Shown: positions 1,080 to 56,502 of the stretch, piece after piece | Layout of the letters: every line of letters starts with the position of its first letter | How positions within the stretch are numbered: the first letter of the stretch is position 1 | Virus record (IMG/VR): IMGVR_UViG_3300020814_000535 | Length of the DNA stretch: 64,000 nt | Direction: 5' to 3' (one strand) | Source of the DNA: a virus | Lineage: Duplodnaviria > Caudoviricetes | Made by a program: the position numbers and the translations under genes | The notes under the pieces: model-generated | Told to the model about the DNA's origin: nothing | Databases searched by the model: none | What the model saw: only the letters and a program-made list of their open reading frames with translations

Positions 1080-4000
1080 CTAACCACCAATAGTACCTAC
1101 GGCATATCGACCAGTCCACTTTTTGAGCGTACCAACGATATTGTCCATCGTATCTTCAAACCAGGCGTCATAACCAAGATCTGCCTCTGGCTTCCATTCT
1201 CCAAACAAGGTGCTCCAGGTAGACGCAGGCATTTTTCTTGTAGGAATCCCGCCCGTAAATGGACGTCCATGATGCAACAATGGGTTCATCGTGATGGGTT
1301 CTCCCCAAGGCGTGTAATTAAGGATCTTTTTGGCCACAAAAAGACCGACAGCTCCCATGGCCGCACTTATTGGAGCAGACAGCATAGTTGAGTATGGACT
1401 ACTTAAAGCCCTCAGCTTACTGGCGGCTTGTTCACCCCAAACCTTCTTGTAAACGCCTTCGGTAATAACCCCCAAAGCCTCCATCGAGCTAAGGAGACAC
1501 CAGTCGTTAACATACACACACATATCTGGAGTAACCTCGGTTAGAAAACCGCTCTCACGAGTGAAGGTGTGAACTACCTGCTCTACGTCTATAGGACCAA
1601 CCATATCCGAATAATCGTCTACAATAAAAATCGTGTCATAAGGCTTGATGCTCGCATCGCCAATACCGATAATATCTCCTTTGTAAATATCTTTCGCATC
1701 TCTAGCTAACAAACTCAATGCGTAGCGTCTTGCCATGTTTTCGTTGTTTACATTAACAAACTCACCTACTCTAACTCTTGTATCTTCTGTTGGCAGAGCA
1801 TTATCAAGTTTCAAAGTAAAAGACTCCATCTCAGTTTGCATTTGCAAATCAACAGATTCTTTCTTTTCAGAATCTACCTGGCTTTTTGGATACTTAATAA
1901 CAATTGTATTGGCAACATCTCTTGCATCGGCCTTGATATTATTCGCTACGATATGAGAAGCCCCCGTCCATAGATGATACTGTCTAAATGGGCGAATAAA
2001 TCCTGCTTCTTTAGCCAACTGCAAACGCTGTTCGTTGTATTTGGCAAATGTCTTCTTTACTTCTTTTGTCTTGTTAAAGATCTGTTCAACACTATTTAAA
2101 CTACCAGCACTAGTCCCCATTGGCGTAACTGCAGCAAGAACTTGGTGGGCATTTATTTGTTTCCGCGACTCAATCGTCTCTTCTTCCGCAATAGCTTTAA
2201 CCTTAGCTTGAGCAGACTGTTCGTCTGAAGTAGCTGTTCTAGCAAAATACATCTGATTGGGAAGGCCAAAGAAGTAAGTCATCCGCTCGCCGTATTTGTC
2301 AGGATAAGGAACAGGAGAGCCAATAAAGTTTGGATGTCTTAGCTCGAGTTCCTTGAAGATATCCCAAATTGTTGTCTGATAAATAAAGTACTTCAATTCC
2401 TTAAAGATTATCCCAGACCCAAACTTAGCTAGATCCTCTTCTGCTCGAGGAGCAAAGATATTGTCGTCTTCCGGAGCAGGAACGAATTGCCACTTGTGGG
2501 TTAACAGATCTCGTTCACTCGTTGTATCTCCGCGCGCCCACCGACCAAAGTGGAGAATCTCAGGTTGAGCCAACATCTCCTCAAAGATACGTCCTGTTGT
2601 AGCGTTGTCAGTAAAACCCCACCAGCACCAGGTCCCAAGTCCCCAGGTATTCTTGGATGTCGGCTTATCTAGTCCTTTAATATCTTGTTGCAATTCAGTC
2701 GCGTGGCTTTGAGCAACAATGGTTACTAGATCGTCTGTATCCGAGAAGAGGACAGCCTGTATCTTGCCTGTGAAAACTCCGTCTAGCAGTTTGGGATCCG
2801 CCGAATAACCCAATTTAAGATGAATGTCCATTCCTTCTTGAAGTAGAAGGGAGGCTATTGGATTCTCTTGAAGTGTATTTGCTTTCGAAGGATCATCTAA
2901 AGCTCCCATTTCCGACACCAAGTTGCCCTTGCTGTCTCTTGGAGCGTTGCCTTTTGAATCATATCTTCCTCTCTGCGAATCATCTTCATGTTTGAATTTT
3001 CTATTACTAAGAACTCCAGAAACATTTGTTAGCTCAATTACACAGAGATCTGCAGCAATCTTTCTGCTTTTGATAACGCGAATTGATTGAACAGAATTGT
3101 AAGAAAAGAAATCGTCATAGGCCAGGCGCTTTCTCTGACCCGAATCATCTTCGATAAAGTAAAGCTTGAATGTTGGGAATGCTCTAACTAATCTTTGAGC
3201 TTGTCCCTTTAAAAGCCTAGTCTCAAAATCATTAATTGCTTCGATCAAAGGAGAAGTGGTCGTAGAAGTAATATCCAGGGGAGTCGACCGTGCAGCGATT
3301 TTATTCATTGCGCGTCTTGATTGTTCGGCCATCTGGCGACCAGCATTCTTTCCCTTGATCCAAGGAATGTTCGAATCCACAACAGGATTCATAATCTTAC
3401 TTTTATCTTTATTAGACTGAACACTCCAACATTCAAAATGCAAATGAGGTCTTGTATAAGGATAACCACTTCTTCCAAGAACAGCGATACAATCTCCGGC
3501 TTTTACCTTAGCTCCTGCCTTAACACCAGGGTTGATCGCCTGAAGGTGCATATATCTTGTATACTTAACTTGCTTGCCATTCGGATGCGCAATCTCTATA
3601 AACAATCCAGCCTGAGGAGTTGGAACTTTGCTGGCGAATTTAACAACTCCGTCCGCCACGCAATAAACTTCTATTCCAACATTGCCAAAGATATCCACAC
3701 CCTCGTGAACGTACCCAATCTTTTTACCTTTATCTCTACTCCAAGCCATATACTGCGCATGCGTAGCCTTACTTAAATTTGGGAAATCAGAAGGATTGCA
3801 ACAGCCAGCTTCTACAAGAGTTTTTCTTGCAGCTGGAGAATTCCAATGAGCTACCGCGCTCTTCCTTCTGCCTTCAAAAGAAAAAGGAGTCGTTCCAATA
3901 TCTCTAACACCCAGAGGCTCGTTAATAACCGAATAGCTAGCTACAGGACAAACCATACCGTATTCATTTGGGGTCTGAGTTGACTTCTTGGGTGGCCACG

Positions 4001-6986
4001 AAAACTGGAATTCAAGCGGTTCAATACCTAAATCAGAATTTGATCCGGATCTCACTCCAACAGAAGCGGAAGGGCTGGTATCTTTACCTCCACTCGGAGT
4101 TGTCGTTCCGCCCATACGAGCCGTAACGCCTCCCCACAGTTCGTGAGTGTCGGAAGAATGAGGAATCAAACCTTGGCTCTGAATGACATACTCATCGTCA
4201 TACCAGTTGGTGGAAATTCTACTGGGATCTGGTTTAACGGTTAGCTTAATGCCTTCTCCTGAATTACCTCCCTCATTCTCGTTGCGGGTAGAGTTGTTGT
4301 AAGAGATTTTATCGTAGAGAGGCTTCGCCATCTCGTTCTTAGCTAACTCTTCAATAGCTTTTCTTGGACCTTTATCACCTCCACCAATATGTTCTAGATA
4401 CGACTTCTTAAAGAAGTTTCCAGTTGAATCTTGAGCTTGGTCATATAGAGCAAGACTGTGTTCTCTAGCTTGATTCAAAAGGTTGCTGTCAATTAAAGAT
4501 CCAGCTGTAGCTGCGGCTATTGATCCATCGTAGGTTGGATACCAGAAGTAGATATCAGGATCGTAGTCTATTAGTTTCTCTTTGGTAAACGTTGCATCCA
4601 TCGACGATCCGACAGAAGAAAGTTGTTCTCTGAAATCTGGATAGGCTGTTTTTCCTTGCCCGATTCCCAGGCTTTCTTTCTTAATCTTGAGATGCTCGAA
4701 CTCTGGAAGAGTTAGATATTCTCCATTAATGATTTTGTCCAACAAAGCTGAAAGATCTTTTTGGTATCTCTGAAAACCAAGTTCTTGTAGTCTTTGCTTT
4801 TTTTTATCATTTGCATCAGACATTCTGCTAATAGCTTTCTGGATGTCATTCATTTGGCGCTCACCTTCGCCAGAACCTCCTCCGCTCCTACTAATAACAT
4901 CTCTCTTTAGCTTATCGACTCCAAAAATAGAACCGTTGTTTGGCAAAGCTTCAATCAATGAATAAGTTTGCCATCCCCCTCTCCAGGAATACATATCTCC
5001 GCGCCCGCTCCCAAATGTAACGCCAGGAGACATATTCCCATTCTTCCACATTCCACTTTCGGCATATTGGTCTCCCTTTCCCCAAACACCGCTCTTGCTA
5101 AACGTAGCTCCAGCTTTATCTGGGTAGATCGCTTCCATTACATCTTTGGCTAGTTTGTTATATAGAATACAACCTTCCAGAACCAGGTCATAAAAAGCTT
5201 TGTTCTGTTTTGAACTAGAGACAGAAGGCTCGATCATATACCAGCATTCTCTAGAGGCCTTAGTATTCTTGTAAAGAACCTTCCAAACTTCATTTCTCAT
5301 TCCATTCTCACTCATCACGAATTCTTGTTGAAGGGCTTCTTGGTCTTCCAGGCGGGTTTTGCTTTCAATGCCGGCAGACGTCAATGACAAGATAGCTTTA
5401 GAACGTCCAGGTTGATCTGGAATAGTCGCGGCATCAAAAGACTTCCCTATAAATTCTGAGAGACCAAAAAGACTCAGAAAGTCATTCTTCACAAATACGT
5501 TTCTTATCCCTTGCGGGACCATCTTGTAACGAAGATTAATGTTTTCCCAGGAATCATAGATGTTTGCCAGATTGTTTACCGCATAGTTTGTTCCATTCAT
5601 AGTAAACTCGGCTGTTGAATCATAGCCTCCTGTAAACTGACAAGTCGGATAAGAATGACCAGCCATTGCAATAATGGCAATACAGGGAGAGAAAGTTACA
5701 GAACAAGCTTCCAGTACAATGCCATTGTTAGGCATTCCAGGAGTAGAGGAGCTAATCAGGAAACTTTCTTCTTTGCGATAGAGTTTGTATCCGCCGGCAG
5801 ATATCTTCTTTCCGCCCACCTTGATCGAGGCTTGAGTTCCAAAACCTTCCATCTCTTGATACAAACTAAGCTGGGAATCTTCCTTCTCGGCTTGTTTAAT
5901 CATCTGCAAACGTTTCAACACTTCTGCTCCAGCCGAATTGATAGCTTCTTTATTTTCGTTTACAACAGCCTTCCCCGACTTCTTGCTCTGCATATAGCCA
6001 GGAGTAAGTTTCTGGAGTACTGGCAAAAGAACTTCGGAGGTTGCCTTGGTTAACTCGCCCTTCTGGAATCCCATCAGAGCCATTCCTTCTGGCTGTGTTA
6101 GAATTCCTCTCTCCTTCATCTTCTGAGCCCAGGTATCTACAGCATATTGGCTAATCAAAGTATCTGAGTTCTCAACAGGAACGCATCTTCCCTGAACCCC
6201 AGGAAGATCGAAGTTAGAGCTTTGGCCATAGTCTAGAGTTTCGCGCCAAGCCTCCATTGCTCCATCAGGATTACCTTTTAATGTGTCGAGAAGTTCCTTT
6301 GCGGCTGCTTCCGCTGCAGCGTTCGTGTGCGGAAGAATCTTGAATTTATTCCAGGCAATAGTTGTTCTTTCGGCTTCGCTATTGAGTCCGATGTAGGGCC
6401 AAGTAACTGACTGACATTTCTTAAGCACAGGTTGATAGAACATCTTCCATAAATCGGAATCTTTAATGTTTCCGGGAGAGGCGAAATCTGGCCCTGTTTT
6501 AAAAGCCAGGGTCGAAACGTAGGGAAAGTAGTTAAACCAGATAAAGTTAAATTGACCGTGCAGCGTATCTGGCATTCCCGGAATCGTCGAGAAAGTCATC
6601 GACGTAAGGACTAGCGCAGTTTGATTGAGTTCCTTGTACTTTTCGTCTCTTTGGCCGCCGACCAATGCTAATTGATCGTTTAGATATTTATTCGAGACTA
6701 CACAGAAAGGAGTCGATCTTAGTCCTGCGAATAAAGGACGAAGACGATTGTTAATTGATTCGTTTCCGCAAAAAGGAACAGATAAAGAAACGCTGATAAC
6801 CGAATGGCCAGATTTGGCCTTCTGCGGAGCTGCTGCCCGAAGAGAATCCCACTGATTCAAGAAACTTCTTCTACTAACAGATATCTGATCTGGAGGTATT
6901 TGCAGAAGAACATCGTTAATCGTAAAGTCGTCTTCTTCTACCTTGCCAGCTCTAATTGCAGATTTGATTTCGGTAGTTTCGGGCAA
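1080..6986 (-). CDS. baseplate hub/tail-associated protein with M23 peptidase domain
   Basis: 1968 aa; M23 zinc motifs HEGVD, YMHL and HLHFE (~3380-3720); position before baseplate genes. Confidence 0.7.
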   Translation of the reverse strand: MPETTEIKSAIRAGKVEEDDFTINDVLLQIPPDQISVSRRSFLNQWDSLRAAAPQKAKSGHSVISVSLSVPFCGNESINNRLRPLFAGLRSTPFCVVSNKYLNDQLALVGGQRDEKYKELNQTALVLTSMTFSTIPGMPDTLHGQFNFIWFNYFPYVSTLAFKTGPDFASPGNIKDSDLWKMFYQPVLKKCQSVTWPYIGLNSEAERTTIAWNKFKILPHTNAAAEAAAKELLDTLKGNPDGAMEAWRETLDYGQSSNFDLPGVQGRCVPVENSDTLISQYAVDTWAQKMKERGILTQPEGMALMGFQKGELTKATSEVLLPVLQKLTPGYMQSKKSGKAVVNENKEAINSAGAEVLKRLQMIKQAEKEDSQLSLYQEMEGFGTQASIKVGGKKISAGGYKLYRKEESFLISSSTPGMPNNGIVLEACSVTFSPCIAIIAMAGHSYPTCQFTGGYDSTAEFTMNGTNYAVNNLANIYDSWENINLRYKMVPQGIRNVFVKNDFLSLFGLSEFIGKSFDAATIPDQPGRSKAILSLTSAGIESKTRLEDQEALQQEFVMSENGMRNEVWKVLYKNTKASRECWYMIEPSVSSSKQNKAFYDLVLEGCILYNKLAKDVMEAIYPDKAGATFSKSGVWGKGDQYAESGMWKNGNMSPGVTFGSGRGDMYSWRGGWQTYSLIEALPNNGSIFGVDKLKRDVISRSGGGSGEGERQMNDIQKAISRMSDANDKKKQRLQELGFQRYQKDLSALLDKIINGEYLTLPEFEHLKIKKESLGIGQGKTAYPDFREQLSSVGSSMDATFTKEKLIDYDPDIYFWYPTYDGSIAAATAGSLIDSNLLNQAREHSLALYDQAQDSTGNFFKKSYLEHIGGGDKGPRKAIEELAKNEMAKPLYDKISYNNSTRNENEGGNSGEGIKLTVKPDPSRISTNWYDDEYVIQSQGLIPHSSDTHELWGGVTARMGGTTTPSGGKDTSPSASVGVRSGSNSDLGIEPLEFQFSWPPKKSTQTPNEYGMVCPVASYSVINEPLGVRDIGTTPFSFEGRRKSAVAHWNSPAARKTLVEAGCCNPSDFPNLSKATHAQYMAWSRDKGKKIGYVHEGVDIFGNVGIEVYCVADGVVKFASKVPTPQAGLFIEIAHPNGKQVKYTRYMHLQAINPGVKAGAKVKAGDCIAVLGRSGYPYTRPHLHFECWSVQSNKDKSKIMNPVVDSNIPWIKGKNAGRQMAEQSRRAMNKIAARSTPLDITSTTTSPLIEAINDFETRLLKGQAQRLVRAFPTFKLYFIEDDSGQRKRLAYDDFFSYNSVQSIRVIKSRKIAADLCVIELTNVSGVLSNRKFKHEDDSQRGRYDSKGNAPRDSKGNLVSEMGALDDPSKANTLQENPIASLLLQEGMDIHLKLGYSADPKLLDGVFTGKIQAVLFSDTDDLVTIVAQSHATELQQDIKGLDKPTSKNTWGLGTWCWWGFTDNATTGRIFEEMLAQPEILHFGRWARGDTTSERDLLTHKWQFVPAPEDDNIFAPRAEEDLAKFGSGIIFKELKYFIYQTTIWDIFKELELRHPNFIGSPVPYPDKYGERMTYFFGLPNQMYFARTATSDEQSAQAKVKAIAEEETIESRKQINAHQVLAAVTPMGTSAGSLNSVEQIFNKTKEVKKTFAKYNEQRLQLAKEAGFIRPFRQYHLWTGASHIVANNIKADARDVANTIVIKYPKSQVDSEKKESVDLQMQTEMESFTLKLDNALPTEDTRVRVGEFVNVNNENMARRYALSLLARDAKDIYKGDIIGIGDASIKPYDTIFIVDDYSDMVGPIDVEQVVHTFTRESGFLTEVTPDMCVYVNDWCLLSSMEALGVITEGVYKKVWGEQAASKLRALSSPYSTMLSAPISAAMGAVGLFVAKKILNYTPWGEPITMNPLLHHGRPFTGGIPTRKMPASTWSTLFGEWKPEADLGYDAWFEDTMDNIVGTLKKWTGRYAVGTIGG

Positions 6987-6989: not shown

Positions 6990-9900
6990 TTAATCCTCGT
7001 TCATAATCTTAGAAAGTCTTTGCGGCGTAAGGGAAGCTCTGTCGTCCATTACTCTAGAATTTACATTCGCTCCACCCAATGCAACTGATATCTCAGAGTT
7101 TAACATACCAAAATTGATTCCTCCAGGAGATGAGCCTCTGACCTGAACATTGGTTCCTGCAGGAGAAATACGGGCTCTATTCATTCCAGCCATTGGTGTT
7201 TGTGCCGTAGGACTACCTTTCATTGCATGATAATTGTCAGGATCATGGATATTGGTTCCTATGTATTGGCCGCCACTTCCTGATTTCATTCTAGGCATTG
7301 GTGGAGCCAAGTCTCCAGGTCCCATTGTCTTCGGTGGACTACTAAACAAAGCAGCTATTCCAATCGCCGCCCCAATTCCCAATGCAACAGGCTTTGCATG
7401 CTCAATCAGCTTTCCGCCTGTAGCCATCAGTCTATTCTTAACAGCCATTGCTCTCTGAGTAACTTCGGACATTGTTCCAGGAGTGTGCAAAGGAGGAACT
7501 GCACCAGCAAGCGGAGAAGCTCCTTTGAAGCTTCTGGTAAGCAACGAAGACATTTCTTCTGCGGTAATGTTTCTCGCGCGCCCTCGCTGGATATCTCGAA
7601 ATCTAGCAGGGCTCATTCCGTAGGCTGGGTTGAACTTGTGGAATGACGTCATTGAGCCCGAGATGTCCTGAGCCGCTTGTTCTAGGCCGATACCTGGAAT
7701 ATCTTTCTCGATTAATCCATTAAGCCCTTCCAGCGCAACAGTCCCACCCTCGTCCATAAAACGCGCACCAATAGTTCCTGTGCCAACAACCTGTCTTACA
7801 TTCCTAACAAGACTTTCTGTATCGCGATTACCAATAGCTTGTTGAATATTTCCCATCAAAGTAAGAATGTTCTTTTCTTCACCAGGTTTAATGTGCTTTC
7901 CAGAAATCGGAGTTTGTTCCAACCACTCAAGTAGCCCAAGGGCATTCATCTGCCTCTGATGACTAAGAGCTTTTGAGTTCTCGAGGATAGCTGCCCGTGC
8001 GGTCTGAGTTGCCTCGGAAATCAAGCCAATCTGCTCTTTAGTCGCACCTAATTTAATAGCTGCTCCAGCCATAGCTTCTGTATCGGCAATAGAGATACCA
8101 CTGACCGCAGCCTTCTTTGCTTTGAGCAACTGATTGCGAATCATATAAGCATCCGCTTCTGCAGAACGAGATCTCTTAATAGCTTCATCGCTAAGGTTGG
8201 AAGAAAGCATCATGGCAGAAATAATGTCAGCATCATAGTCTCCCATAGCTCCCATCATTGGAGAAAGTCTGAGTAGTCCCAAATCTTCGAGAGCATCCCC
8301 GTTCTTTAAGTAGGCTTTCGTAACCCTTTCACCAAAATACGCATACGGCCCTTCTCCCTCAACGACCTTAAATTCCACAGGTACAGCAGAATATGGAGAA
8401 ATGGAAGGATGTCGCATCATCATGCCACCAATTGAGCCACCCTCCGCAAACAACTTTTCCTTTATCTTGCCAACTTCTAAGCCCCCGTAAAGCTCTTCCA
8501 TGTCTTTTAACATCATCTCTGCATAATCCTTTGTTATACCAATTTGATTCTGCTTCAAGAAAACACCAGGATTAGGTGGAGCTGCAGTCAAGAATCTACT
8601 TCCCATCAAACGTCCGCGCATCAAGGATTCACCACCAGTCCCCGTCAACATTCTTGCTCGAGTAATATCTTGAGCAAACTGATGCATCTCTGCCTGCATA
8701 GCTGTTCGATTTATTTCTCCTCTTTCAAATTGCTCAGCTACATCAACAAATCCTCTGTACTTGGCAGCCAAATCCGGAATGACCTCTTCTCCAGAGGGAG
8801 GAACATATGAGGCTAATTGCGAGATTGTATCTGCCGCAGGTACGTAAAAATCTCCTAAGCCAGAAAGATTTACGAGACCACCTTTCTGAAAGAAGTCTTT
8901 AGTAAGTTGAGAAGGAGTCAATCCAAGTCCGCCAGAAGGCTTAATTAAACTTTCAATCGATTTTCCAAGCTCGCTCGCCTCAAAAGCTTTGTGTGGATAT
9001 CTGTAGGTCATTCGTCCCATAATCTCTTCGTGAACATCTCGTCCAAGCTCACCCAGATTAGGGGCCGTTAAAAACTCAAACAATCGAGGCTCAATTGTTC
9101 CTCTACCGCCCGAACCCGAACCATACTCTCCTGCAAAAGAGAATTGAGCTATACCAATCGGAATTCCTCTAGAAATCTCTGCAGCTTCTTGAGAAGAGAG
9201 ACCGACAGTCTTCTGCCAATAACCCCTAGAAACTGGAACAGAAAGAGCTTCTTGAGCTTTCACCAAAGCTTCTTCGAAAGAAACATTTTGAGACTTAGCT
9301 AAACGAGCTGCTGTCAGATTGGTGAGCCAGTCAGACTCTAAGTTCTTCCATCCAAACACCTCTGGCACTGCTCCGAAAACACGCCCCATCTGTTCTGGAG
9401 AAAGTTTACTTGCACGAGCAATCCTGACAAGTTCTGACAAAACTTGTTCTCTTTGAAGCCCTCCGCTAGCTTCGGCAACCTGTGTAATTTGATTCATCGT
9501 TGCCAAAGGATTCCTTAAAAATTCTGAAGTTATTCCTCTTTCGGGCGCTCCATATGTTTTCCAACTAGTCCCAGATCCACGACGTCTTCCAATCCTTGAT
9601 TTCGACATATTTAATTTTGCGTAGTCATATAGGGCTGTAAACATCTGTTTGTAATGAAGCTGTCTATTTTTACGCAGTTCGTCCATTGAAATAAGAGCAT
9701 CCACGCCAAGTCCAGCACCGCCCACTCTTTTTCCTATCCATTCTCTCATTGCATCGGTCTCAACAACTGTAAGCATAGCTTTAGCGTCACCGAATACTTT
9801 GAATCGCTCCATCCGTCCCGTTTCGCTAATACCTGTAACCTGTACATAGTCTCCAGTGTTTTTGTCTTGATGTCTAATCGCATTAATCAATTTCATATTA

Positions 9901-11636
9901 CGTCTTGCAACTACAGGCTCTCCATGGGGATCGTAGCCAAGAACAGTCCCTTTCTCTATCTCCTTGTTTAAATCCCGAGAAGGAACTCGGAGGCCCCAAT
10001 CTGCTTCTCTTGGATTTAAGATCTCTCCTAAACCAAGTAGAGAATCACTAGCAACCTTCATTCTCTCAATTTGCAACTGGCCAAATTGAGCCGCTTTCTC
10101 CCTGGAAATAATACCCGAACCTTCAAGCATTAGTCCTTGCATTTCAGAACCCATGCTCGAGGGAATATACATAGTTCGAACCATCGGGATAGGCGTTGCT
10201 CTCTTTTTGGCCGCCCACCCAAAACGACTTGTTAGGGGGTCTTCTAGGATGGCTGTCTCAGAAGAAATCGTTGGTGTAAACAAATCTCGAATTGCCTGAC
10301 CAGGTCTACGAGCCCAATCAAACTCACTAGAAAACAAAGGATCTAGTTTTCTGACGTCCGTAAGAGAAATAATCCTGTTAGCTATTTGATTAGGAGAATG
10401 TCCAGGAAAAACACTTAATCTCTTTTCTCCTTCAAAAATACCTCGACTCAATAAATCTGAATAATAAAGAGAACTTTCAATCTCTTCTCCAGCGGGTCCA
10501 TACAAGTGGGCAATATGTTTTCTTAAGCCGATATATTCGTCATGCCCCGCATGCAAGTCTTTTGGAAGTCGATCTACCCATTCTAGAGGTTGAGTGATTT
10601 GTTGATGAAAAGCGCGTTCCACTTCGTGAATACGACGTCTGGTTAATTTGTGCTCTTGCATCATTTCGTGAACATGTTGACTCAAAAGAACTTGAGCGGC
10701 CCACTCCTCATATCGAGCATTCTTCTTAAGTAGATATCCTTCCGTAGTCTTCTCTGTTAACCAAAACTCTCCGGCAATGTATTGAGACTGCTGCGTAGCC
10801 CCTTTAACAACCATTTTTTTGTCTTTTCTCAGAGACAAAGGAATAGTAAAGGTCGCCTGTGGGATCTTATATCCCTTTTTACCTTTGAGTTGTTTTCCAA
10901 GATAGGGTGAATCAAAAATCTGGATTCTTAATTCAGATCCAGGAACATCGGGTCTCGCCGTACCCCTTAGACGAACATGCCCCTTCAGAGTTTTCTCAAT
11001 CTCTTGTATAGTCTCTGCTAAACTTCCCCTTCCTTCTAGGCTGGCAAGAGAAATACTTTGGAGTTTTTGTCTTGGCAACTTTGGAAGTTCTGTTGTAACC
11101 AGTCCAAGACCCTGGTCAAGCCTCCCTCTTAAGACATCAACATCTCTCAGGAAGGCAGATACTGTACGCTGCATGTAGATTGAAGAAGAACCTTTTGCAG
11201 TTTGTTCGAGGTCGCGCAGAAGGTCTACAGCGGTTTGGGCCTGCCCATTCATAATCTTTTCGGTCAGTAGACCTGCAAACTTTCCGGTAGGATCGGAATG
11301 TTTAAGAGCCCTAGTAATTGCCGAATCAACATCTTTGAAACTTAATGTCGTCACGCCTCTCTCAACCTCATCAATAAGATTTCTCAGTCCAGTTGCGCTA
11401 AAATCACTAACTCTTCCAGTGGGAATCCCTTTAAAGAGAGTCGAGGTTGCATTCTGGGTTGCTGAATAGGCTTTCTCAAATGGGCTGGGAAGATTAGCCC
11501 TTCCTAGTTCACCAAAGATACTCTTGAAATCAGTATCGACATACCACTTACGCACACCTAGCCCAACAGCTGCGGTTCCGCCAGCAGTGGCTACTACATC
11601 CTTAAAGGAAATATCATCATCTTTCTTGAGAGGCAT
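6990..11636 (-). CDS. putative single-chain two-barrel DNA-dependent RNA polymerase (virion RNAP candidate)
   Basis: Colinear motifs LEGSGIIS, FKVFGDAK, VDALIS...R, GGRGTIEPRL, GRLMGSR, QIGITKDYAEMM, MRHPSIS, MGDYDAD (8226-8240), EQTPISGKH. Confidence 0.75.
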   Translation of the reverse strand: MPLKKDDDISFKDVVATAGGTAAVGLGVRKWYVDTDFKSIFGELGRANLPSPFEKAYSATQNATSTLFKGIPTGRVSDFSATGLRNLIDEVERGVTTLSFKDVDSAITRALKHSDPTGKFAGLLTEKIMNGQAQTAVDLLRDLEQTAKGSSSIYMQRTVSAFLRDVDVLRGRLDQGLGLVTTELPKLPRQKLQSISLASLEGRGSLAETIQEIEKTLKGHVRLRGTARPDVPGSELRIQIFDSPYLGKQLKGKKGYKIPQATFTIPLSLRKDKKMVVKGATQQSQYIAGEFWLTEKTTEGYLLKKNARYEEWAAQVLLSQHVHEMMQEHKLTRRRIHEVERAFHQQITQPLEWVDRLPKDLHAGHDEYIGLRKHIAHLYGPAGEEIESSLYYSDLLSRGIFEGEKRLSVFPGHSPNQIANRIISLTDVRKLDPLFSSEFDWARRPGQAIRDLFTPTISSETAILEDPLTSRFGWAAKKRATPIPMVRTMYIPSSMGSEMQGLMLEGSGIISREKAAQFGQLQIERMKVASDSLLGLGEILNPREADWGLRVPSRDLNKEIEKGTVLGYDPHGEPVVARRNMKLINAIRHQDKNTGDYVQVTGISETGRMERFKVFGDAKAMLTVVETDAMREWIGKRVGGAGLGVDALISMDELRKNRQLHYKQMFTALYDYAKLNMSKSRIGRRRGSGTSWKTYGAPERGITSEFLRNPLATMNQITQVAEASGGLQREQVLSELVRIARASKLSPEQMGRVFGAVPEVFGWKNLESDWLTNLTAARLAKSQNVSFEEALVKAQEALSVPVSRGYWQKTVGLSSQEAAEISRGIPIGIAQFSFAGEYGSGSGGRGTIEPRLFEFLTAPNLGELGRDVHEEIMGRMTYRYPHKAFEASELGKSIESLIKPSGGLGLTPSQLTKDFFQKGGLVNLSGLGDFYVPAADTISQLASYVPPSGEEVIPDLAAKYRGFVDVAEQFERGEINRTAMQAEMHQFAQDITRARMLTGTGGESLMRGRLMGSRFLTAAPPNPGVFLKQNQIGITKDYAEMMLKDMEELYGGLEVGKIKEKLFAEGGSIGGMMMRHPSISPYSAVPVEFKVVEGEGPYAYFGERVTKAYLKNGDALEDLGLLRLSPMMGAMGDYDADIISAMMLSSNLSDEAIKRSRSAEADAYMIRNQLLKAKKAAVSGISIADTEAMAGAAIKLGATKEQIGLISEATQTARAAILENSKALSHQRQMNALGLLEWLEQTPISGKHIKPGEEKNILTLMGNIQQAIGNRDTESLVRNVRQVVGTGTIGARFMDEGGTVALEGLNGLIEKDIPGIGLEQAAQDISGSMTSFHKFNPAYGMSPARFRDIQRGRARNITAEEMSSLLTRSFKGASPLAGAVPPLHTPGTMSEVTQRAMAVKNRLMATGGKLIEHAKPVALGIGAAIGIAALFSSPPKTMGPGDLAPPMPRMKSGSGGQYIGTNIHDPDNYHAMKGSPTAQTPMAGMNRARISPAGTNVQVRGSSPGGINFGMLNSEISVALGGANVNSRVMDDRASLTPQRLSKIMNED

Positions 11637-14600
11637 TAGCCCTCCAATTCTCCTCTGCGATAAAGCCCTCTTATCTCTTCGCTTCTATCTTCTTTAAGCT
11701 GGAGATTAACAGAATGTTTCTTGTCTCCAAAACGAGGAAGTATTGTTACGTCGATTGGTTTTACTCCATGCTTATATAATACTTCAAGAACTCGTTCCCG
11801 CACTTCTTGCTGATTTAGCTTCGGACCTTCTTCCACTTCTTCTGCTGCTGCTTCAAGATAAGGTCTCTGTGCTGCGGCTTTAATGTCGTCTGGCCAAATG
11901 TCGTAATCAAAGTTAGATTCTCCAAGATTTTCTACTATTTTTAACTTCAAATCTTCGAGAGAAACAAGAGGAGAGTTGTGGTAAACCCCTATAAAACTTT
12001 GATAAGAATGCCCGTCAGGAACTTCGAAATCATAGACCTCTCCGTCATAATCTTTGCTAGAAATCTCCTCTACGCGGTATGCAATAAATCCATCACCCAG
12101 TATGGCTCGCGTAGATTTATCAATTGGTTCAGTTGAGTAAATGGTCTTGCGATTGTAGTTCCTCGTAACACAACGGAAAGAAACAGGCTGTCTGCTTGCT
12201 TCCCAAATTAACTTAGCCAAATAGCATAAAGCTTTATTGGTCACCATAAGTCTATCTCTTCCGTCTTTACTGCCGTCTCCATCTAAAAGCCCCCCAAGAA
12301 GAGCCTGTTGCGACTCTCTTGTAATATTGGTTATCCAATATGGAATTTTCTTGGTGTCGCAGCCTCGTCCAATCCAAGTCTCAAATAAAGTTCCCAAAAA
12401 CCCACTGTTGACCTTCAAACAACAACTATTTCCTGTATCTCTGTACCTTTCGTACACAGAAGAAACCAGACCAAACTTTTCTTCAATTACTTTTTTCGCC
12501 AATTCAAGAACAGGCCTTTCCTTAATAGTCATGGTTATCATAACGCCACGTACCCGCTTCCCCGTTGACCACACATTCCCATCTGCCAAAATTAATCCAG
12601 TCAACCACGCAAGTTGCTCGTCAATCTCCATAATCCTCTTTACGGGCCTAATTATTCCCGAATGAGGCCTTACAAAATCCCCGTCTTTCTTAAATAATTT
12701 CTTCAAGTCTTGAGGCAACTCTTCCAGTAAATCAACGACAGGATTCTTCTCTGAACATTTTAGGTATGGTTTAATCAAATAATGGCTTGTGGTCAGGTCT
12801 TTAATAGCAATCCACTCTGGCTTGTAATTTACAAAATGGATATTCTCACAATGAGAGCATTTCCATCTTCCTTCTCTAGCTAGACAGATAGAACTAGGTC
12901 TAACGTCATATGGACACTTCTCTGTCTTAATTGCCAAAACTAAATGATTCCCCGTCGCCTCCATCTTGAACAATTCATCATGTGCAATACGAATGGTATA
13001 AATTTTTTCATTAATCATACGTTTAAATATATCGCTTATTATCCGTATGTCACCATATTTATCATAAATCTTATCTCCAATCTTTATTTCTTCAGCCATC
13101 TTCTCTTCTAGATTTGGAGCCGACATTAATACCTGGTCTGGCGGTAAACAGAATCCTACCCAATCTGGGCCAGGAAGCGGCTTGTCTTCTAATTTCTCTG
13201 GCAGAAGTTTAGTTCTTCTATACCAATCTGCATAAGTTTCGTCTTTAGTCCGAGAGGAGAGATATTCGTTCTTTAATCCTTCGTTTACTGGAAACCCCTC
13301 TGTCTCTTGAAGTTGTTTTAGTTCTTCCGCCGCGATTTCTGCTTTCTTCATCTCTTCTTCGGTTAACAAACCTTTCTTTTGAGCCTCCGTGTAATTGGCG
13401 ACATCTTGCATCTTCCAACGAGCCATCATCAGGGGCTTCTCGTTCTCAGGGATCATCTCAAGAATCTTCTCTCGTTCTTCCGCATCTGCCTTCACAAACT
13501 CTGTGAAATAATCCCTTTCTCGTCTGGGCAATGAACGGTGGATGGTTGCTGGATTCTTCGTAAAAGGATTCATTCCAAAAAGAGTTTCTCGTCTTTGAGC
13601 ATCGTATTTACGCGCCTCCCCCTTGTCTCCCTCGGCCACAGCTTCGTTCTTTAGCTTAGTGAATTTAACATACTTTAGTATATCAAAATACTCTTCAATC
13701 TCTCTTCTTCGTTGGACGTCCGAAGGTATGCCGTCCCATCCCAAAAAGTGAGCCATTGAAGTTAGAAATGGTTTTACGAAGTCACGGATTGGATGTTGCC
13801 AATATCCCGATTGAGTGCCCCATACCTGAGTCTTCTCATAATCTTCTACAGCTGTTCTAGCGTGAACCAGTTTGGAAGCTGGAGAGATAGGAGTCAGATA
13901 CTCAAACGGAGTTTCTGCGTTGTGGCTCAGGGTCTCCCAGTAAGAGCCCAAAAGCTGACCCATCCACCCAGGACCGCCTTCCGCTTTGGCGGCTTCATTT
14001 TCCCGCGCGAGCGCTAACTCGGATTCGTTGTAAATCTTTTCTTTGTAAAGATAAGAGGAAAATTGCTTACGCTGTTTCTTTTCGGCAACCTGTTTGATTG
14101 TTTCGCTAATTCGCTCTTGGTCTTCTGTTGTTAATTGCCCGCGCTTATCCATTGCTCGAGCTTGAACAAGAGCTTGGCGATATTCCCTACTGTAAGGGGC
14201 CAAGTCGCCCAAGATCTTAACGCGATGGGAAACAGGATAATCTTCAGGGCTGACTCCCTTTAATTCAGGATGTATAGTTTCGTAACCAAGACCTGGAACA
14301 CGCTCTTCGCCTCTAGGAACCAAGGTGTAAGGATCGCCCTGTCTAAAATTCTCAGATCGGTCATTTGGTCCAGGCATCCATGAAGGTTGGGTATTGGCTA
14401 AAGGATTATAAAAGTCTTTTGTTTGTTCATTAGGATAGAGGCGTCTAAAGAATTCGGTGTTATGAACTAGCGTTCCTTCAACTACATAGTAATGTTTGTC
14501 ACTGATTGTTAAATCATAAACAGGAGGGCGAATATCTTCGAGTTCTTTTGCCGACCTCACATAGGCAAAAAGCATCCCGTCGTATATAAAGCTTTTCCCA

Positions 14601-17600
14601 CTTAGCCGAGAAGTTTGCTCAGGCAATCTCCTTGATAAAATTGCCTCAATTTGTTTTGTAGCTTTTTTTCCCCAGCTTAAGTAATGTCGTAATGAATTTT
14701 TACGCTTAGTCCCTTGAGGATAGGCTCCTCTCCCGCTTTCTTCATAGGAAGTAACAAGATTCCCAATGACACCAAGGCCAAGCGCTAAATCAAAAACATC
14801 GCGAATTAACTGTTTAGAAACAGAAGTAAACCCAGACTTACTCTTCTCTTTGTTACACCAGCCATCTCCAGAAACAACGCCAGCTAGCAAATGAACGTAT
14901 CTGCTCGGTTCCATTTGCTTCACAAACAACGGTACATGCTTCTTGTGTGCCCCTTGTCCACAAGAAGCACTTAGCCATCTTGCAAATTCAGAACAAGAAG
15001 CCCTAAGAACAATTCCTTCTCCATTATTCTTGCTAATACAAGCATCTACTCCTAATTCTTTTTTCAATATCGAGGCTAAATGTTCGGCAATATCTCTTTC
15101 TTTTTCGGCCATACATAACGAAATTCTCCCATCTTCTGTAAATCCTTCAGCTATAAACCAGCCAATAAAGTAAAGAAGATCATCGGACAATTTAACAAAA
15201 CGATCTACGCGATCAGGAATATATCCCCTTTTTTGAGCAGTCAGGATAACCTTAATCGTTCTTTTTGAGAACCCTTCTCTCTTTAAAGATTTGCGAGAAC
15301 AGACTCCGTTTAAGCCAAACTCGGCGAATTCAGTTGCCTTAGCCATCTCAATATCTTTAATTTGTCTATAAACAAACTTGTCTGTAATAACCCCTCTTCC
15401 ATAAGGAGCCAAATCAACAACATAATCTCCGAAAACAGCTGGTTTCAGTATTGGATAAACAACCATATCCCCTGGACAAATATCTTTAAGCTGAATATCT
15501 TTTAACTTAATTTCATCGCTGTTTCTTATTGGCTTAACATGACCTTGAGAATATCTTTGTCTCTTAAATACAGGAATCCAATGATTTGCCGTCGCTCGTA
15601 TCTTCGAATCGGTTGTAGAAACCTCAAGTTCAATAATCGATTCGCTATATTCAGTTTTCTTTAGGGTATTCTCTACAGAACGAAAAACTCCTCCTTGCGA
15701 CAAAACCCTATCTCCAATACAAATTGTTTCAATAGGCATATAACCTTGCTCGGTATAAACAAGAGTTCCTTCTACAAAGCAGAATCCGACCGGATCTCCA
15801 ATTTCCTTTTCCCAGTAAGCTCTTCCAGGAGAATAGATCTGTCCTGCCGAAGCCAGTTGTTCTTCCTGAGAAAACAGGTCTTGAGTGCCAGTCAAACGTT
15901 CTTTGAAAGAAGCCATCGCAAATCCAGGAAGGCCTACCATCTGGCGTAAACGATAGACTTGCTCTCCAATTACCTGACTAGCGTCATTGGGACCAACAGG
16001 AGCACCTGGTCCAGATTCTCCAAGTCCAGGAAGCGATCTGCGTTCTCCAAAGCGCAAAGATTCTGGAGCGTATTCGCTGCCGCCCGATCCTTCTCTTAGC
16101 CATTCGTCAGAATGCATATAACGAACGGGTTTAACAATTCTTCCTATGGTCGCGCCAAGAAGAGGACCGATAAGAGGAACTTCCTCAAAAGCTGGAGATG
16201 TCTGGGGATAAGGTCGATCCCAATAATGCTCTCGTTCGAGGTTGTAGGTAAAATTCTCTTGTATCCATTTACTTATCGGAGAGGGTTCGTCTTCGCCCCA
16301 AATCGCTTTCTCTCTGGCCTTATTAATCATCCTAGGATACCAATGTTGCTCGTATCTGGTGATACGTTCACCCTGGATCGGCGACCTACCAAACATCCAC
16401 CAACGCCCTTTCCGCACGGGCACTTCTTGTTCACCAGAATAGATTCTCTCTAATTCATCTGGTCTTGTTGAAGGGACTAGAGCGCCAGGAATAAACGGGG
16501 CTATTGCTGCTACACCAAGAAGCAATCCTCCCCACTTAGCCATTCCGCCAAAAGTGGGTTTCTTGATTACGCTAAGTAATCTTCCAAGAACTCCCTTTTC
16601 TTCTTGTCTCGTAGCAATCCACTTAGCGGCTCTACCAACTCTTCCTTCTGTCAGTATATTTACTTCTCTATCTACGATAGCTTTCATTTCAGGAGAGAGC
16701 CCACGAATGATTTGTTCTTGTGGTTCAATCCCTTTTAGCTGCTGAAGAAACATCTGCTCTCTAGCTGTATAGATCAGAGAGGCTTCAGATGCGGAGAAAC
16801 CTTGTGTTTGAAGGGCTATTTGTTTGGCGATTCTCTCTCCATAACCAAGAACAGAACCACCTAAATAACCCATCAGAGGAAAAGCCGCTAGTTTAGTTAG
16901 ACTAGTACTTCCTGGAGCTACTTCCTCTTGTCGTTCTCTAAGGGAGTGAAGCCCCGTTAATTCTGCTGTCCGAGAGAGAAGGACTTGTGATTTTGTCCAT
17001 ATTGTTCCCGCCGCAGCTGTTATTCCCTGGTCAAAAATTGTCTCATCAAAAAGAGAGCTTTCTCTGACCCAGTAATCTAGTTGATCATAGGCTAGCTTAG
17101 CTGCAGGAAGTGCTATCCCGAGTTTTAAAGCTAGCTTCCCAAAAGTCCTGAGTCCACTAGAAGGCTCGACTCCTGGACGGAATCTCCCGAGGCCAGGAAC
17201 CTTCTGAAGGATTGGGAAGAATTCAAAAGGAGCATTAGCTAGTTGGTTAAACCTATCTACTAGGGATGTTCCATAACCAGAAATAAAACGCCTGGCCGCC
17301 TGAAAGCGTGTTTTCCCGCCGGCAAATCCGAATACTTCTTCCGCCTGTTTGCCAGCTGCATCAATAAACGGGATCCGCTGAGTAAAGACATCTTCGATTC
17401 CAGACCAGGGTGCGCCACGGAAAGATCTTGCATAGGCGCTTTGGAATCTAGGAGTTACAGAAAGAGGATTTCTGAGTACCGAAGCGTGCTCAAGGAGTAC
17501 TTTGTCGCCCGTCCTGCCCAGATAAAGTTTTCCGTTCTCGAAACGGAAACCCTCGTTAAGCAACTCGGGGGAAGTAAAGTCGGCACCAGTTAGCTTGGTT

Positions 17601-17971
17601 AGATAATCTAACCATCCCCTGCCAAGATAATTGTCGGAAGACGACAATCCTTGGAGGATCTCGGGGGAAAAATACCTAAACTGTTGAGATGCTGTCTCGA
17701 GCGGAGACAACATATGCGACAATTGAAATGTGCGAAGGATTTTGCCGGGAGAATATTCCTCTACCGCTCTAATGGCCTTTAGATAATAATCCCAACCCCT
17801 TTGATCTCCGATTTTAGTGTAACCGAATAAAGTAAGAGCCCCAAGGCCAAGTCCAGCTACCGCTATGTTAGCGTAGTGTCTTGAATCTGGATAAGGGAGT
17901 GGCTGCTCGCCAGATCGCCAATCATCTACAGGCTGGTTTTGATATAATTCAGGAACGAAGGAAGAAGCCAC
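11636..17971 (-). CDS. large tape-measure-like/ejected virion protein with two inteins
   Basis: 2111 aa (about 1278 aa after splicing); hydrophobic N-terminal segments; follows chaperone-like genes. Confidence 0.6.
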   Translation of the reverse strand: MASSFVPELYQNQPVDDWRSGEQPLPYPDSRHYANIAVAGLGLGALTLFGYTKIGDQRGWDYYLKAIRAVEEYSPGKILRTFQLSHMLSPLETASQQFRYFSPEILQGLSSSDNYLGRGWLDYLTKLTGADFTSPELLNEGFRFENGKLYLGRTGDKVLLEHASVLRNPLSVTPRFQSAYARSFRGAPWSGIEDVFTQRIPFIDAAGKQAEEVFGFAGGKTRFQAARRFISGYGTSLVDRFNQLANAPFEFFPILQKVPGLGRFRPGVEPSSGLRTFGKLALKLGIALPAAKLAYDQLDYWVRESSLFDETIFDQGITAAAGTIWTKSQVLLSRTAELTGLHSLRERQEEVAPGSTSLTKLAAFPLMGYLGGSVLGYGERIAKQIALQTQGFSASEASLIYTAREQMFLQQLKGIEPQEQIIRGLSPEMKAIVDREVNILTEGRVGRAAKWIATRQEEKGVLGRLLSVIKKPTFGGMAKWGGLLLGVAAIAPFIPGALVPSTRPDELERIYSGEQEVPVRKGRWWMFGRSPIQGERITRYEQHWYPRMINKAREKAIWGEDEPSPISKWIQENFTYNLEREHYWDRPYPQTSPAFEEVPLIGPLLGATIGRIVKPVRYMHSDEWLREGSGGSEYAPESLRFGERRSLPGLGESGPGAPVGPNDASQVIGEQVYRLRQMVGLPGFAMASFKERLTGTQDLFSQEEQLASAGQIYSPGRAYWEKEIGDPVGFCFVEGTLVYTEQGYMPIETICIGDRVLSQGGVFRSVENTLKKTEYSESIIELEVSTTDSKIRATANHWIPVFKRQRYSQGHVKPIRNSDEIKLKDIQLKDICPGDMVVYPILKPAVFGDYVVDLAPYGRGVITDKFVYRQIKDIEMAKATEFAEFGLNGVCSRKSLKREGFSKRTIKVILTAQKRGYIPDRVDRFVKLSDDLLYFIGWFIAEGFTEDGRISLCMAEKERDIAEHLASILKKELGVDACISKNNGEGIVLRASCSEFARWLSASCGQGAHKKHVPLFVKQMEPSRYVHLLAGVVSGDGWCNKEKSKSGFTSVSKQLIRDVFDLALGLGVIGNLVTSYEESGRGAYPQGTKRKNSLRHYLSWGKKATKQIEAILSRRLPEQTSRLSGKSFIYDGMLFAYVRSAKELEDIRPPVYDLTISDKHYYVVEGTLVHNTEFFRRLYPNEQTKDFYNPLANTQPSWMPGPNDRSENFRQGDPYTLVPRGEERVPGLGYETIHPELKGVSPEDYPVSHRVKILGDLAPYSREYRQALVQARAMDKRGQLTTEDQERISETIKQVAEKKQRKQFSSYLYKEKIYNESELALARENEAAKAEGGPGWMGQLLGSYWETLSHNAETPFEYLTPISPASKLVHARTAVEDYEKTQVWGTQSGYWQHPIRDFVKPFLTSMAHFLGWDGIPSDVQRRREIEEYFDILKYVKFTKLKNEAVAEGDKGEARKYDAQRRETLFGMNPFTKNPATIHRSLPRRERDYFTEFVKADAEEREKILEMIPENEKPLMMARWKMQDVANYTEAQKKGLLTEEEMKKAEIAAEELKQLQETEGFPVNEGLKNEYLSSRTKDETYADWYRRTKLLPEKLEDKPLPGPDWVGFCLPPDQVLMSAPNLEEKMAEEIKIGDKIYDKYGDIRIISDIFKRMINEKIYTIRIAHDELFKMEATGNHLVLAIKTEKCPYDVRPSSICLAREGRWKCSHCENIHFVNYKPEWIAIKDLTTSHYLIKPYLKCSEKNPVVDLLEELPQDLKKLFKKDGDFVRPHSGIIRPVKRIMEIDEQLAWLTGLILADGNVWSTGKRVRGVMITMTIKERPVLELAKKVIEEKFGLVSSVYERYRDTGNSCCLKVNSGFLGTLFETWIGRGCDTKKIPYWITNITRESQQALLGGLLDGDGSKDGRDRLMVTNKALCYLAKLIWEASRQPVSFRCVTRNYNRKTIYSTEPIDKSTRAILGDGFIAYRVEEISSKDYDGEVYDFEVPDGHSYQSFIGVYHNSPLVSLEDLKLKIVENLGESNFDYDIWPDDIKAAAQRPYLEAAAEEVEEGPKLNQQEVRERVLEVLYKHGVKPIDVTILPRFGDKKHSVNLQLKEDRSEEIRGLYRRGELEG
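11975..13150 (-). mobile_element. intein with LAGLIDADG homing endonuclease (392 aa)
   Basis: VGF|CLPPDQ...TGNH...LTGLILADG...LLGGLLDGDG...VYDFEV...VYHN|S. Confidence 0.92.
14459..15781 (-). mobile_element. intein with LAGLIDADG homing endonuclease (441 aa)
   Basis: VGF|CFVEGT...TANH...FIGWFIAEG...LLAGVVSGDG...VYDLTI...LVHN|T. Confidence 0.92.
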
Positions 17972-18007
17972 AGAACGATTATCTCAGGAGTTTTTACTTC
18001 TTGCCAG
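17972..18007 (-). promoter_or_regulatory. putative promoter for a leaderless mRNA
   Basis: CTGGCA-N18-GATAAT-N6-GTG, no SD. Confidence 0.5.
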
Positions 18008-18887
18008 CTTTGAGTTTCCGACGTCGTTCAAGAGCTTGGATAACATCCTTGTAATGCTCTTGCGCTTCTTCGACCATTTGCTCGCGCTTCTCTCCTAATT
18101 CCCTCATCTCCCAACCACTTCCAACTGCAAATACATCGTGCCCTTCTTCTTTAAAATTAACTCCATGGGTAGGCTTGTACTTCAAAATAGGAGAATCGGG
18201 CTCGTCTGGCTGCTTCTCTTGTGAAATAGGTTCTATCTTCTTTTTCGAAATATCTTGATGACGCTTCAAAGCTTCTTGTCGAGCCTTCTCGAGATCTCTC
18301 TGCTGCATATCCCAAATCTCTTTAGCGTCTAGTTTAGGTCGCTGTGGCTCAGGTTGTTCTTCTTGTCCTGCGGGAATAATCTCAATTGGAGACTGCCTGA
18401 TCCCAAGCTGGATTAATTTTCTTTCCGCAAGAGCCAGAGTGTTGATCATTGTCTGATAATCCATAGCGTAGATCTCTTCTGGTTTATACGGAAAAGCTAT
18501 TGAGATAACCGAGACAAACTCATGGATAATCTGCTGTTTCCCGTCTAGTTCTGCCCGCGCCATATTCAGAGTGTAGTTAACTCCCTCTGCAGACGAAGGA
18601 CATGAAGCTTCCCAGATATTATTGACAACAGTGCTAACAATCCCAGCTTTGAGAGTTGGGAACAAACGGATAAAAGATTTATCTAGAACACATTTCTTGA
18701 AGATCTCGTCTTCGAATGCAGCGAGAGGAATAAGGCCCCTCTCAAAGCCCTCCGCATATTCAAGATAGTCTTTTATCGAGAGAGTTCGCCAGGGGACAAG
18801 AGTATTGTCTGGGAAGAGAGTCGCGTAACTGCCCTTCCCGTACTTCTCGTGGAGAGAGACAACGGCAGGTAAAAGGTTAGAGTTCAA
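17994..18887 (-). CDS. tail assembly chaperone-like protein
   Basis: N-terminal half resembles the neighbour (FEDEIFKKCVL...KAGIVSTV vs YEEAYVRTCML...KAGTISTL); lies between tube genes and the TMP-like gene. Confidence 0.5.
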   Translation of the reverse strand: MNSNLLPAVVSLHEKYGKGSYATLFPDNTLVPWRTLSIKDYLEYAEGFERGLIPLAAFEDEIFKKCVLDKSFIRLFPTLKAGIVSTVVNNIWEASCPSSAEGVNYTLNMARAELDGKQQIIHEFVSVISIAFPYKPEEIYAMDYQTMINTLALAERKLIQLGIRQSPIEIIPAGQEEQPEPQRPKLDAKEIWDMQQRDLEKARQEALKRHQDISKKKIEPISQEKQPDEPDSPILKYKPTHGVNFKEEGHDVFAVGSGWEMRELGEKREQMVEEAQEHYKDVIQALERRRKLKAGKK

Positions 18888-19311
18888 TTACGAGCATAGA
18901 CGCCATTGAGGCTGGCACGAAGTTGCTCTGCTGTTGAATCTGTTCAAACAAAGTTGAAATCGTTCCTGCTTTTCGTGTTGCCCACTGGGAGTCAGAAGCC
19001 CAAAGCATACAGGTTCGAACATAAGCTTCTTCATACTGATAGACCGTTTCGAACTTCTGAGACTGCATGGCAGTCTGAAGTTCTACATACTCCTGCCTCT
19101 GCATTGAACGAAAAATAAAAAGCTCTGTTGCCGAGAAACCAGTTGTAAATACCTGGTCGTACTTGGCCTTCCAAGCTTCTATCTGTTCTACAGTAGGGGC
19201 TCCAGTAAAATTACTGAGAGCGTCCTTTAGCTTCTTGCGCCGCTTCTCTTCTGCTTCCTTTTCTTTTTCCTCTTCAAGACGTTCCTGTTCAGTCTTTTCT
19301 AGTTCTGGCAT
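18877..19311 (-). CDS. tail assembly chaperone-like protein
   Basis: 144 aa, IEAWKAKY...FIFR pattern, position after tube genes. Confidence 0.55.
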   Translation of the reverse strand: MPELEKTEQERLEEEKEKEAEEKRRKKLKDALSNFTGAPTVEQIEAWKAKYDQVFTTGFSATELFIFRSMQRQEYVELQTAMQSQKFETVYQYEEAYVRTCMLWASDSQWATRKAGTISTLFEQIQQQSNFVPASMASMLVIEL

Positions 19312-21024: not shown

Positions 21025-21060
21025 CAAACATATTGTTACACAATACTATTTAGATGCCAA
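21025..21060 (-). promoter_or_regulatory. putative promoter for a leaderless mRNA
   Basis: TTGGCA-N17-AACAAT-N7-ATG, no SD. Confidence 0.55.
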
Positions 21061-21757: not shown

Positions 21758-21770
21758 AGCTTACCTCCTA

Positions 21771-47405: not shown

Positions 47406-47417
47406 AAACTAATCTCC

Positions 47418-48014: not shown

Positions 48015-48022
48015 TATTCCTC

Positions 48023-49347: not shown

Positions 49348-49356
49348 AGTTTAATT

Positions 49357-52916: not shown

Positions 52917-52988
52917 TTTACGTGCCTTAGAGCGATTGTGCTACTAAGGTATGAAGTACTAACTGACTGGCTGGCTAAGGAGGATGCT

Positions 52989-56484: not shown

Positions 56485-56502
56485 CTAACCAAAGGAGGAC
56501 TA

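Follow-up and report, generated by a model that had tools for sequence, protein, structure and literature searches.

The 64,000-nucleotide (nt) window analysed here (IMG/VR record IMGVR_UViG_3300020814_000535; Duplodnaviria, Caudoviricetes) is the last third of a complete 188,653-bp phage genome with terminal repeats, whose best match was a metagenome from an anaerobic digester. Its bases 1-52,375 form a minus-strand virion operon that includes the genes for the terminase, the portal, the major head protein, the sheath and three tube paralogues, along with genes of 2111, 1548 and 1968 amino acids (aa). The 1548-aa gene, our subject, is predicted to encode a single-chain two-barrel RNA polymerase (RNAP) that is probably carried in the virion. 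A GGAGG Shine-Dalgarno sequence lies immediately upstream from its ATG, and the TAA of the 2111-aa gene overlaps this ATG (TAATG), a coupling already recognized in the first-pass annotation, which had been made from the letters of this DNA alone. The gene and its parts are as follows.

6990-11636, minus strand: single-chain two-barrel RNAP with a virion-protein-type C-terminus, 1548 aa (open reading frame [ORF], conservation and predicted model)
11040-11636, minus strand: N-terminal region, residues 1-199, variable in sequence and containing a hydrophobic stretch rich in Gly/Ala
9105-11039, minus strand: beta/Rpb2-like half, residues 200-844, with the lysine-bearing barrel (E505-G506, K613, K619, K656; structural alignment and conservation)
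9798-9800 and 9780-9782, minus strand: codons of K613 and K619
7497-8945, minus strand: beta'/Rpb1-like half, residues 898-1380, catalytic barrel followed by long helices (model alignment)
8205-8603, minus strand: double-psi beta-barrel (DPBB) with R1075-x-P1077 and DxDxD, residues 1012-1144 (match to isolated DPBBs)
8226-8240, minus strand: predicted metal-binding triad D1133-x-D1135-x-D1137 (invariant in 132/132 homologues)
7341-7397, minus strand: Gly/Ala-rich hydrophobic helix, possible membrane anchor, residues 1414-1432 (hydropathy 1.65)
6993-7229, minus strand: C-terminal module, putative virion anchor, residues ~1470-1548 (family profile)

The first-pass annotation had proposed such a polymerase from short motifs resembling those of the bacterial beta and beta' subunits. 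Each of these motifs occurs once in the protein (starting at residues 504, 645, 843, 1008, 1031, 1074, 1131 and 1240), K613, K619, R1075 and D1133/D1135/D1137 are where they had been placed, and this DxDxD is the only one in the 1548 residues.

An AlphaFold2 model of residues 200-1380 was built with 52 sequences (model residue 1 is protein residue 200) and reached a predicted local distance difference test (pLDDT) score of 90.2 and a predicted template modelling score of 0.88. When the model was compared with 48,161 PDB representatives by a search independent of Foldseek, the best 17 matches were all two-barrel RNA polymerases: RDR2 (Z 11.9 over 451 residues, root mean square deviation [rmsd] 5.1), QDE-1 (Z 11.6 over 447 residues), the AR9 beta-like chain (Z 11.6), P74 gp62 (Z 9.3), and chains of phiKZ, Pol I/II/III and vaccinia; P23-45 gp96 ranked below them (Z 7.7 over 330 residues). 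Foldseek agreed at weaker scores, with only RNAP chains among the PDB matches listed. Model residues 1-645 aligned with beta, Rpb2 and the AR9/phiKZ beta-like chains, and residues 699-1181 with beta'/Rpb1 chains (Z 11-12.4 in both cases), which supports a beta-then-beta' architecture on one chain, as had been proposed. The only matches to span both halves were single-chain enzymes (RDR2, QDE-1, P74 gp62 and gp96). At a finer scale, model residues 228-644 matched chains of beta-type barrels, and residues 813-945, which carry R-x-P and DxDxD, matched isolated DPBB structures (Z 7.5-8.0, rmsd 2.1-2.3). The predicted model contains three hallmarks of the two-barrel superfamily, namely, paired DPBBs, R-x-P plus DxDxD, and the two lysines of the beta-type barrel. 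A lack of paired barrels had been named in advance as grounds for rejecting the polymerase, and the model does have them, in beta-then-beta' order. K613 and K619 should converge on the Asp triad in three dimensions, and two long helices (model residues 986-1020 and 1027-1046) lie inside the beta'-aligned range and carry E1240; the bridge helix and, more tentatively, the trigger loop would be expected there. We consider a two-barrel fold with an intact active site to be nearly certain.

In metagenomic data, a word search found 29 homologues and an exhaustive phmmer search found 168 clusters at 50% identity. The median length of the full-length homologues is 1476 aa, and a weak search for fused forms of greater length revealed none. 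IMG/VR contained three loci with relatives. GTDB genomes contained none, and therefore no host was assigned. Neither the 1548-aa protein nor a distant homologue had a match in Pfam, PHROGs, NCBIfam or PDB sequences (single-sequence and profile searches) or, by tblastn, in 50,697 phage genomes; the Pfam RdRP family PF05183 did not match the 1548-aa protein, and the ESM Atlas gave only leads below 0.9, to tape-measure clusters. An alignment of 132 homologues (21-45% identity, 1181 query columns) had eight invariant columns: G567, R851, P933, P1077, D1133, D1135, D1137 and E1240. The conservation of DxDxD, whose absence had been set beforehand as grounds for rejecting the polymerase, is therefore complete (132/132). 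K613 was retained in 127 of the 132 sequences, K619 was K in 126 and R in 5, and K656 (129/132), R1075 (130/132), K1247 (130/132), P1077 (132/132) and G506 (131/132) were similarly constant. As far as this alignment can tell, the catalytic residues are the most conserved positions of the family, and its structural parts drift.

The alignment also corrected some details of the motif reading. DYDAD had been singled out as a distinctive variant, but it is not special, because the residues between the aspartates of the triad differ freely from homologue to homologue (Y in 19/132 and K in 51/132 at the second position; A in 91 and G in 31 at the fourth). VDALIS...R is present as described, but its conserved basic residue is K656 rather than R658. 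LEGSGIIS is present as well, but it seems to resemble bacterial FEDSILVS less than DGxGxIS, the motif of RdRP/QDE-1-type enzymes, because G506 is kept in all but one homologue.

The model also led to proteins of cultured phages. Two halves (801 and 802 aa) of a 1603-aa protein of Acinetobacter phage ME3, which by its length should be ME3_36, were among the top five matches in BFVD (E values 2e-8 and 2e-4), and another match, an unnamed half of 1258 aa, has a length that would suit WH1 gp095. The top BFVD match was A0A8S5SD80, a "minor tail protein" of Siphoviridae sp. ctnpt50 (TM score 0.41), and large proteins of the Microcystis phages LMM01 and MaMV-DC matched too; more unrecognized virion RNAPs are possible among these proteins. 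Another match was a 798-aa early protein of ME3, identified by length as ME3_309 (L009:39454-41850, minus strand; TM score 0.49 by target). It ends right after an R-N-P motif, has no DxDxD, is followed by an endonuclease-like gene and has no homologue in the genome studied here; it is possibly an interrupted second polymerase of ME3.

The neighbours of the polymerase gene place it in a contractile-tail module.

1080-6986, minus strand: baseplate hub/M23 peptidase protein, 1968 aa, orthologue of gp147
11636-17971, minus strand: coupled partner gene, 2111 aa, orthologue of the virion protein gp145
17994-19311, minus strand: pair of small genes placed where 0305phi8-36 has its tail chaperonins gp143/gp144 (position only)
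19331-23666, minus strand: three tail-tube paralogues and the tail sheath (PHROG 9206 and 16991; tblastn to sheath genes; annotation of gp139-142)

The sheath, hub and 2111-aa proteins match those of the cultured Bacillus phages 0305phi8-36, WH1, KLEB27-3 and Edson, Acinetobacter phage ME3 and Moorella phage MTATph1, and the phage belongs to the 0305phi8-36/ME3 myovirus lineage, in keeping with the myovirus type and tail-module context first proposed. The order sheath, tubes, two or three small genes, a gene of ~1270 aa, the polymerase gene and a hub gene of ~1950 aa was the same in every relative's locus read (L012 and L013 as far as those loci reach). Just upstream from the sheath, a 393-aa gene (23684-24865, minus strand) has, by eye, a TnpB/IS605-like N-terminus and a similar gene at G000 75563-76714. 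Upstream from the terminase (46860-50346, minus strand), four small proteins that are rich in Gly/Ala and belong to no family, together with a kinase-like gene, resemble internal or ejected virion proteins.

In 0305phi8-36, the slot of the polymerase gene is occupied by gp146, annotated as [quoted passage not shown] The tape-measure assignment was based on tail length, and only the last 60 residues of gp146 aligned with known homologues (PMC2147016). The slot proteins of ME3 (DHDQD), WH1 (DHDGD) and KLEB27-3 (DYDGD) carry the triad with the remaining motifs collinear, and that of Edson (0920) also has DxDxD with the other motifs in order; none of these proteins, gp146 included, is annotated as an RNAP (their labels are tape measure, structural or hypothetical), and the RNAP survey of PMC10770324 contains none of them. 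By eye, DEDDh-like exonuclease motifs are present at the N-terminus of the WH1 slot protein and in MTATph1 CDS27, which has no DxDxD. The MTATph1 slot gene (L006:13513-20869) is split by a transposase insertion, and its C-terminal module survives as CDS31.

A hidden Markov model (HMM) built on the last ~140 residues of the polymerase family matched gp146 (E 1.4e-8), WH1 gp095 (1.2e-7), MTATph1 CDS31 (4.3e-6) and KLEB27-3 gp034 (1.9e-5), with the next match at 0.95. Here and in most homologues, this module is preceded by a Gly/Ala-rich hydrophobic helix; a hydropathy of at least 1.4 was reached near the C-terminus in 87 of 125 homologues and in the cores of none. The first-pass annotation had called the polymerase a stand-alone gene, and it is indeed a single, separate ORF; however, it fills the tape-measure slot and shares its C-terminal module with gp146, because of which the protein is, on sequence grounds, a polymerase with a virion-protein tail and not a plain stand-alone enzyme. 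The module may anchor it in the virion, as homology to gp146 suggests. Judged by these sequences, the slot would hold a virion protein whose C-terminus stays constant while its enzyme cargo can be exchanged: apparently an RNAP here, an RNAP plus a DEDDh-like domain in WH1, and a DEDDh-like exonuclease without an RNAP in MTATph1.

The coupled partner becomes a 1278-aa extein once two inteins (14459-15781 and 11975-13150) are removed. It is far better conserved than the polymerase (347 matches, 43-76% identity), carries hydrophobic hairpins, and its orthologue gp145 is a virion protein by mass spectrometry. Its model is confident (pLDDT 84) and had no match among PDB structures, which does not in itself prove a new fold; a new fold for an ejection conduit is possible, and a role as the ejection channel itself would be a guess. 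Its C-terminus closes with a D-R-S strand motif that, by eye only, resembles the polymerase's.

Beyond the virion operon lies the presumed template of the polymerase.

52400-63931, plus strand: presumed early region, a block of small genes with long hairpins between them

The 7-mer T[GT]GTGCT was found within 110 nt upstream from 9 of 34 early starts and 0 of 172 starts elsewhere, a motif picked post hoc. In most cases it coincides with the 3' arm or the loop of an intergenic RNA helix (z -4 to -7.6 in 8 of 9 cases), and because it forms part of such helices it was dropped as promoter evidence; the helices suggest processing or terminator hairpins instead. Sigma-70-like sites were not enriched in the block (10 versus 11.9 in shuffled sequences, a weak test), which fits early transcription by a phage polymerase weakly.

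Several other features of this part of the window were observed. Five long irregular RNA helices on the plus strand (52859-52950, 55489-55560, 56424-56495, 58020-58090 and 60595-60660; z -4.7 to -7.6) each run from a stop codon to a point shortly ahead of the following ribosome-binding site. They resemble the RNase III processing sites of T7 and SPO1 early transcripts. Three related, terminator-like hairpins (plus strand, 56700-56727, 59202-59233 and 59893-59920) have their 4-nt loop in common, along with a compensatory change in the stem and T-rich tails, and each lies upstream from an early gene. Two pairs of early genes on the plus strand are paralogues (56766-57548 and 59959-60597; 53502-53858 and 62295-62678), with 62-79% DNA identity in the repeated stretches. 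Finally, three AT-rich direct repeats of 39-53 nt at the switch from late (minus) to early (plus) genes (52168-52349) are a possible origin or packaging/regulatory site.

We favour the reading, with a probability of roughly 0.7 as a whole, that the 1548-aa protein is a virion-borne, injected polymerase that transcribes the early genes. The Asp triad on one barrel would bind Mg2+, and K613 and K619 on the other would contact the substrate and RNA, as the chemistry of the superfamily suggests. The enzyme would be made late together with the tail genes and in a fixed ratio to its 1278-aa partner, in line with the observed operon and coupling, and would be built into the virion through its C-terminal module. 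Upon sheath contraction, it would be ejected with the partner, be held at the cytoplasmic membrane by its hydrophobic helix and transcribe the first-entering plus-strand early genes without the host RNAP. By analogy to P23-45 gp96 (PMC10770324), we propose that the enzyme is packaged, ejected and tethered to the membrane and that it transcribes the genes that enter first. Later genes probably use the host RNAP, because no second polymerase or sigma factor was found in the genome, a search that a highly diverged one could escape. The parts of this reading differ in strength: an active DNA-dependent RNAP is highly likely, packaging in the virion is likely, and early transcription as the main job is probable.

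Several points weigh against it. Taken as a whole, the model is modestly similar to known structures (Z 12 at best, rmsd 4-8 Å). No phage-specific promoter was demonstrable in the early block. Profile comparison of the core with WH1 and ME3 was not significant (E 0.07 and 0.004), because the cores are too diverged. Lastly, gp146, the only slot protein verified by mass spectrometry, lacks DxDxD, and for this reason packaging is inferred via the C-terminal module and synteny.

The same missing triad and the tape-measure annotation of the slot would suit a polymerase descendant that has lost its activity and serves purely as a structural tape-measure or core protein, but the catalytic residues would then hardly be the best-conserved positions of a drifting family, and we regard this as very improbable. 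Activity with another product, such as RNA-templated synthesis as in QDE-1/RDR2, primers or short regulatory RNAs, would fit RDR2 (Z 11.9) and QDE-1 (Z 11.6) as the best whole-chain matches; their scores are tied with those of DNA-dependent subunits, however, and the characterized phage single-chain two-barrel enzymes (gp66, gp96, gp64 and YonO) are DNA dependent, which makes such a product improbable. Only slightly less so is a non-virion enzyme made late to transcribe late or middle genes, placed in the tail operon only for timing. That no other polymerase was detected in the genome speaks for such an enzyme; its C-terminal module homologous to a virion protein, its fixed position between the genes in the tail-chaperone slot and the hub, and its hydrophobic helix speak against.

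A virion-borne polymerase could also be mainly mechanical, anchored at the entry pore and pulling the 189-kb genome in by transcription, with messenger RNA as a secondary product. The same model has been proposed for P23-45 gp96 (compare T7), and the conserved hydrophobic helix would suit it, as would the coupling to a partner that is highly conserved and bears hydrophobic hairpins. Yet genome entry in this lineage needs no slot polymerase, because 0305phi8-36 gp146 and MTATph1 fill the slot without one, and PMC2147016 notes that entry driven by an RNAP would probably take too long for a genome this large; we consider this role unlikely. We entertain more seriously, although still as a tentative idea, that the polymerase is itself the tape measure or part of it: with its C-terminus at the hub, it would run unfolded through the tube as a heteromeric ruler with the 1278-aa partner and refold at the host membrane after contraction, and the slot would be an exchangeable cargo cassette, a natural protein-delivery tag for contractile tails. 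The slot and C-terminus fit a tape measure, yet residues 200-1380 are predicted to fold as a globular enzyme; among the relatives, a tail length was found for 0305phi8-36 only.

If the protein is a virion-borne early polymerase as we favour, the long-standing "tape measure" gene of the lineage would need reinterpretation. Single-chain injected two-barrel RNAPs were previously characterized in crAss-like phages and one group of Thermus siphoviruses; new here is a sequence-invisible family of 168 clusters in contractile-tailed phages of 180-235 kb. No paper that attributes an RNAP to this slot of the 0305phi8-36/ME3 lineage came up in our literature search, which did not extend to subscription journals. 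ME3 and WH1 are missing from the RNAP survey table of PMC10770324, and a survey of jumbo phages lists only the YonO-like gp99 for 0305phi8-36 and concludes that jumbo phages beyond the phiKZ group and two others have no RNAP of their own (PMC7824862), a conclusion that ME3, WH1, KLEB27-3 and Edson appear, from their sequences, to contradict. Because these four phages are cultured, the packing of a 130-kDa enzyme, its passage through a contractile tail and the start of infection are directly testable. In addition, a one-chain polymerase of 1200 residues offers a simple model for the core of the cellular RNAP.

Among known systems, the first-pass annotation had pointed to P23-45 and phi14:2. P23-45 gp96, a tape-measure-fused virion RNAP (PMC10770324; PDB 8h2m/8h2n), was indeed matched (Z 7.7 over 330 residues) and shares the single chain, both barrels and the tape-measure position. 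However, gp96 is a 5002-aa siphovirus tape measure protein with the RNAP as its N-terminal fifth, whereas here the RNAP takes up about three-quarters of a 1548-aa protein of a contractile-tailed phage, with no long ruler segment and with the M23 peptidase on the separate hub gene; a further difference is that no second RNAP was found here. The gp96 alignment ends at model residue 1089, whereas those of QDE-1, RDR2 and beta' run to 1181, which suggests that C-terminal clamp elements present here are missing from gp96. The protein would work like gp96 and gp66 but is no member of the gp96 family, because it lacks a long ruler fusion and any sequence similarity to gp96 (phmmer and profile searches of PDB sequences, tblastn of phage genomes). 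The gp66 of phi14:2, a crAss-like phage, is likewise a single-chain, injected two-barrel RNAP, injection being presumed for ours, but it had no sequence match and was not among the best 50 structural matches. In phi14:2, a podovirus-like phage, gp66 is capsid cargo and not part of a tail operon. QDE-1, RDR2 and the YonO-like RNAPs (e.g., 0305phi8-36 gp99) also have both barrels on one chain; the first two are the best whole-chain matches (Z 11.6-11.9, ~450 residues), yet at 11-12% identity, and YonO-type enzymes are non-virion proteins encoded outside the tail operon. The virion RNAPs of phiKZ and AR9 are injected for early transcription, as ours would be, but have 4-5 subunits and are packed in the head, and the N4 virion RNAP does the same job with an unrelated T7-type palm fold. 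Further counterparts are 0305phi8-36 gp146 and its slot orthologues ME3_36, WH1 gp095, KLEB27-3 gp034 and Edson 0920, which occupy the same slot among the same neighbours: gp146, WH1 and KLEB27-3 share the C-terminal module, and ME3, WH1, KLEB27-3 and Edson share the DxDxD that gp146 lacks.

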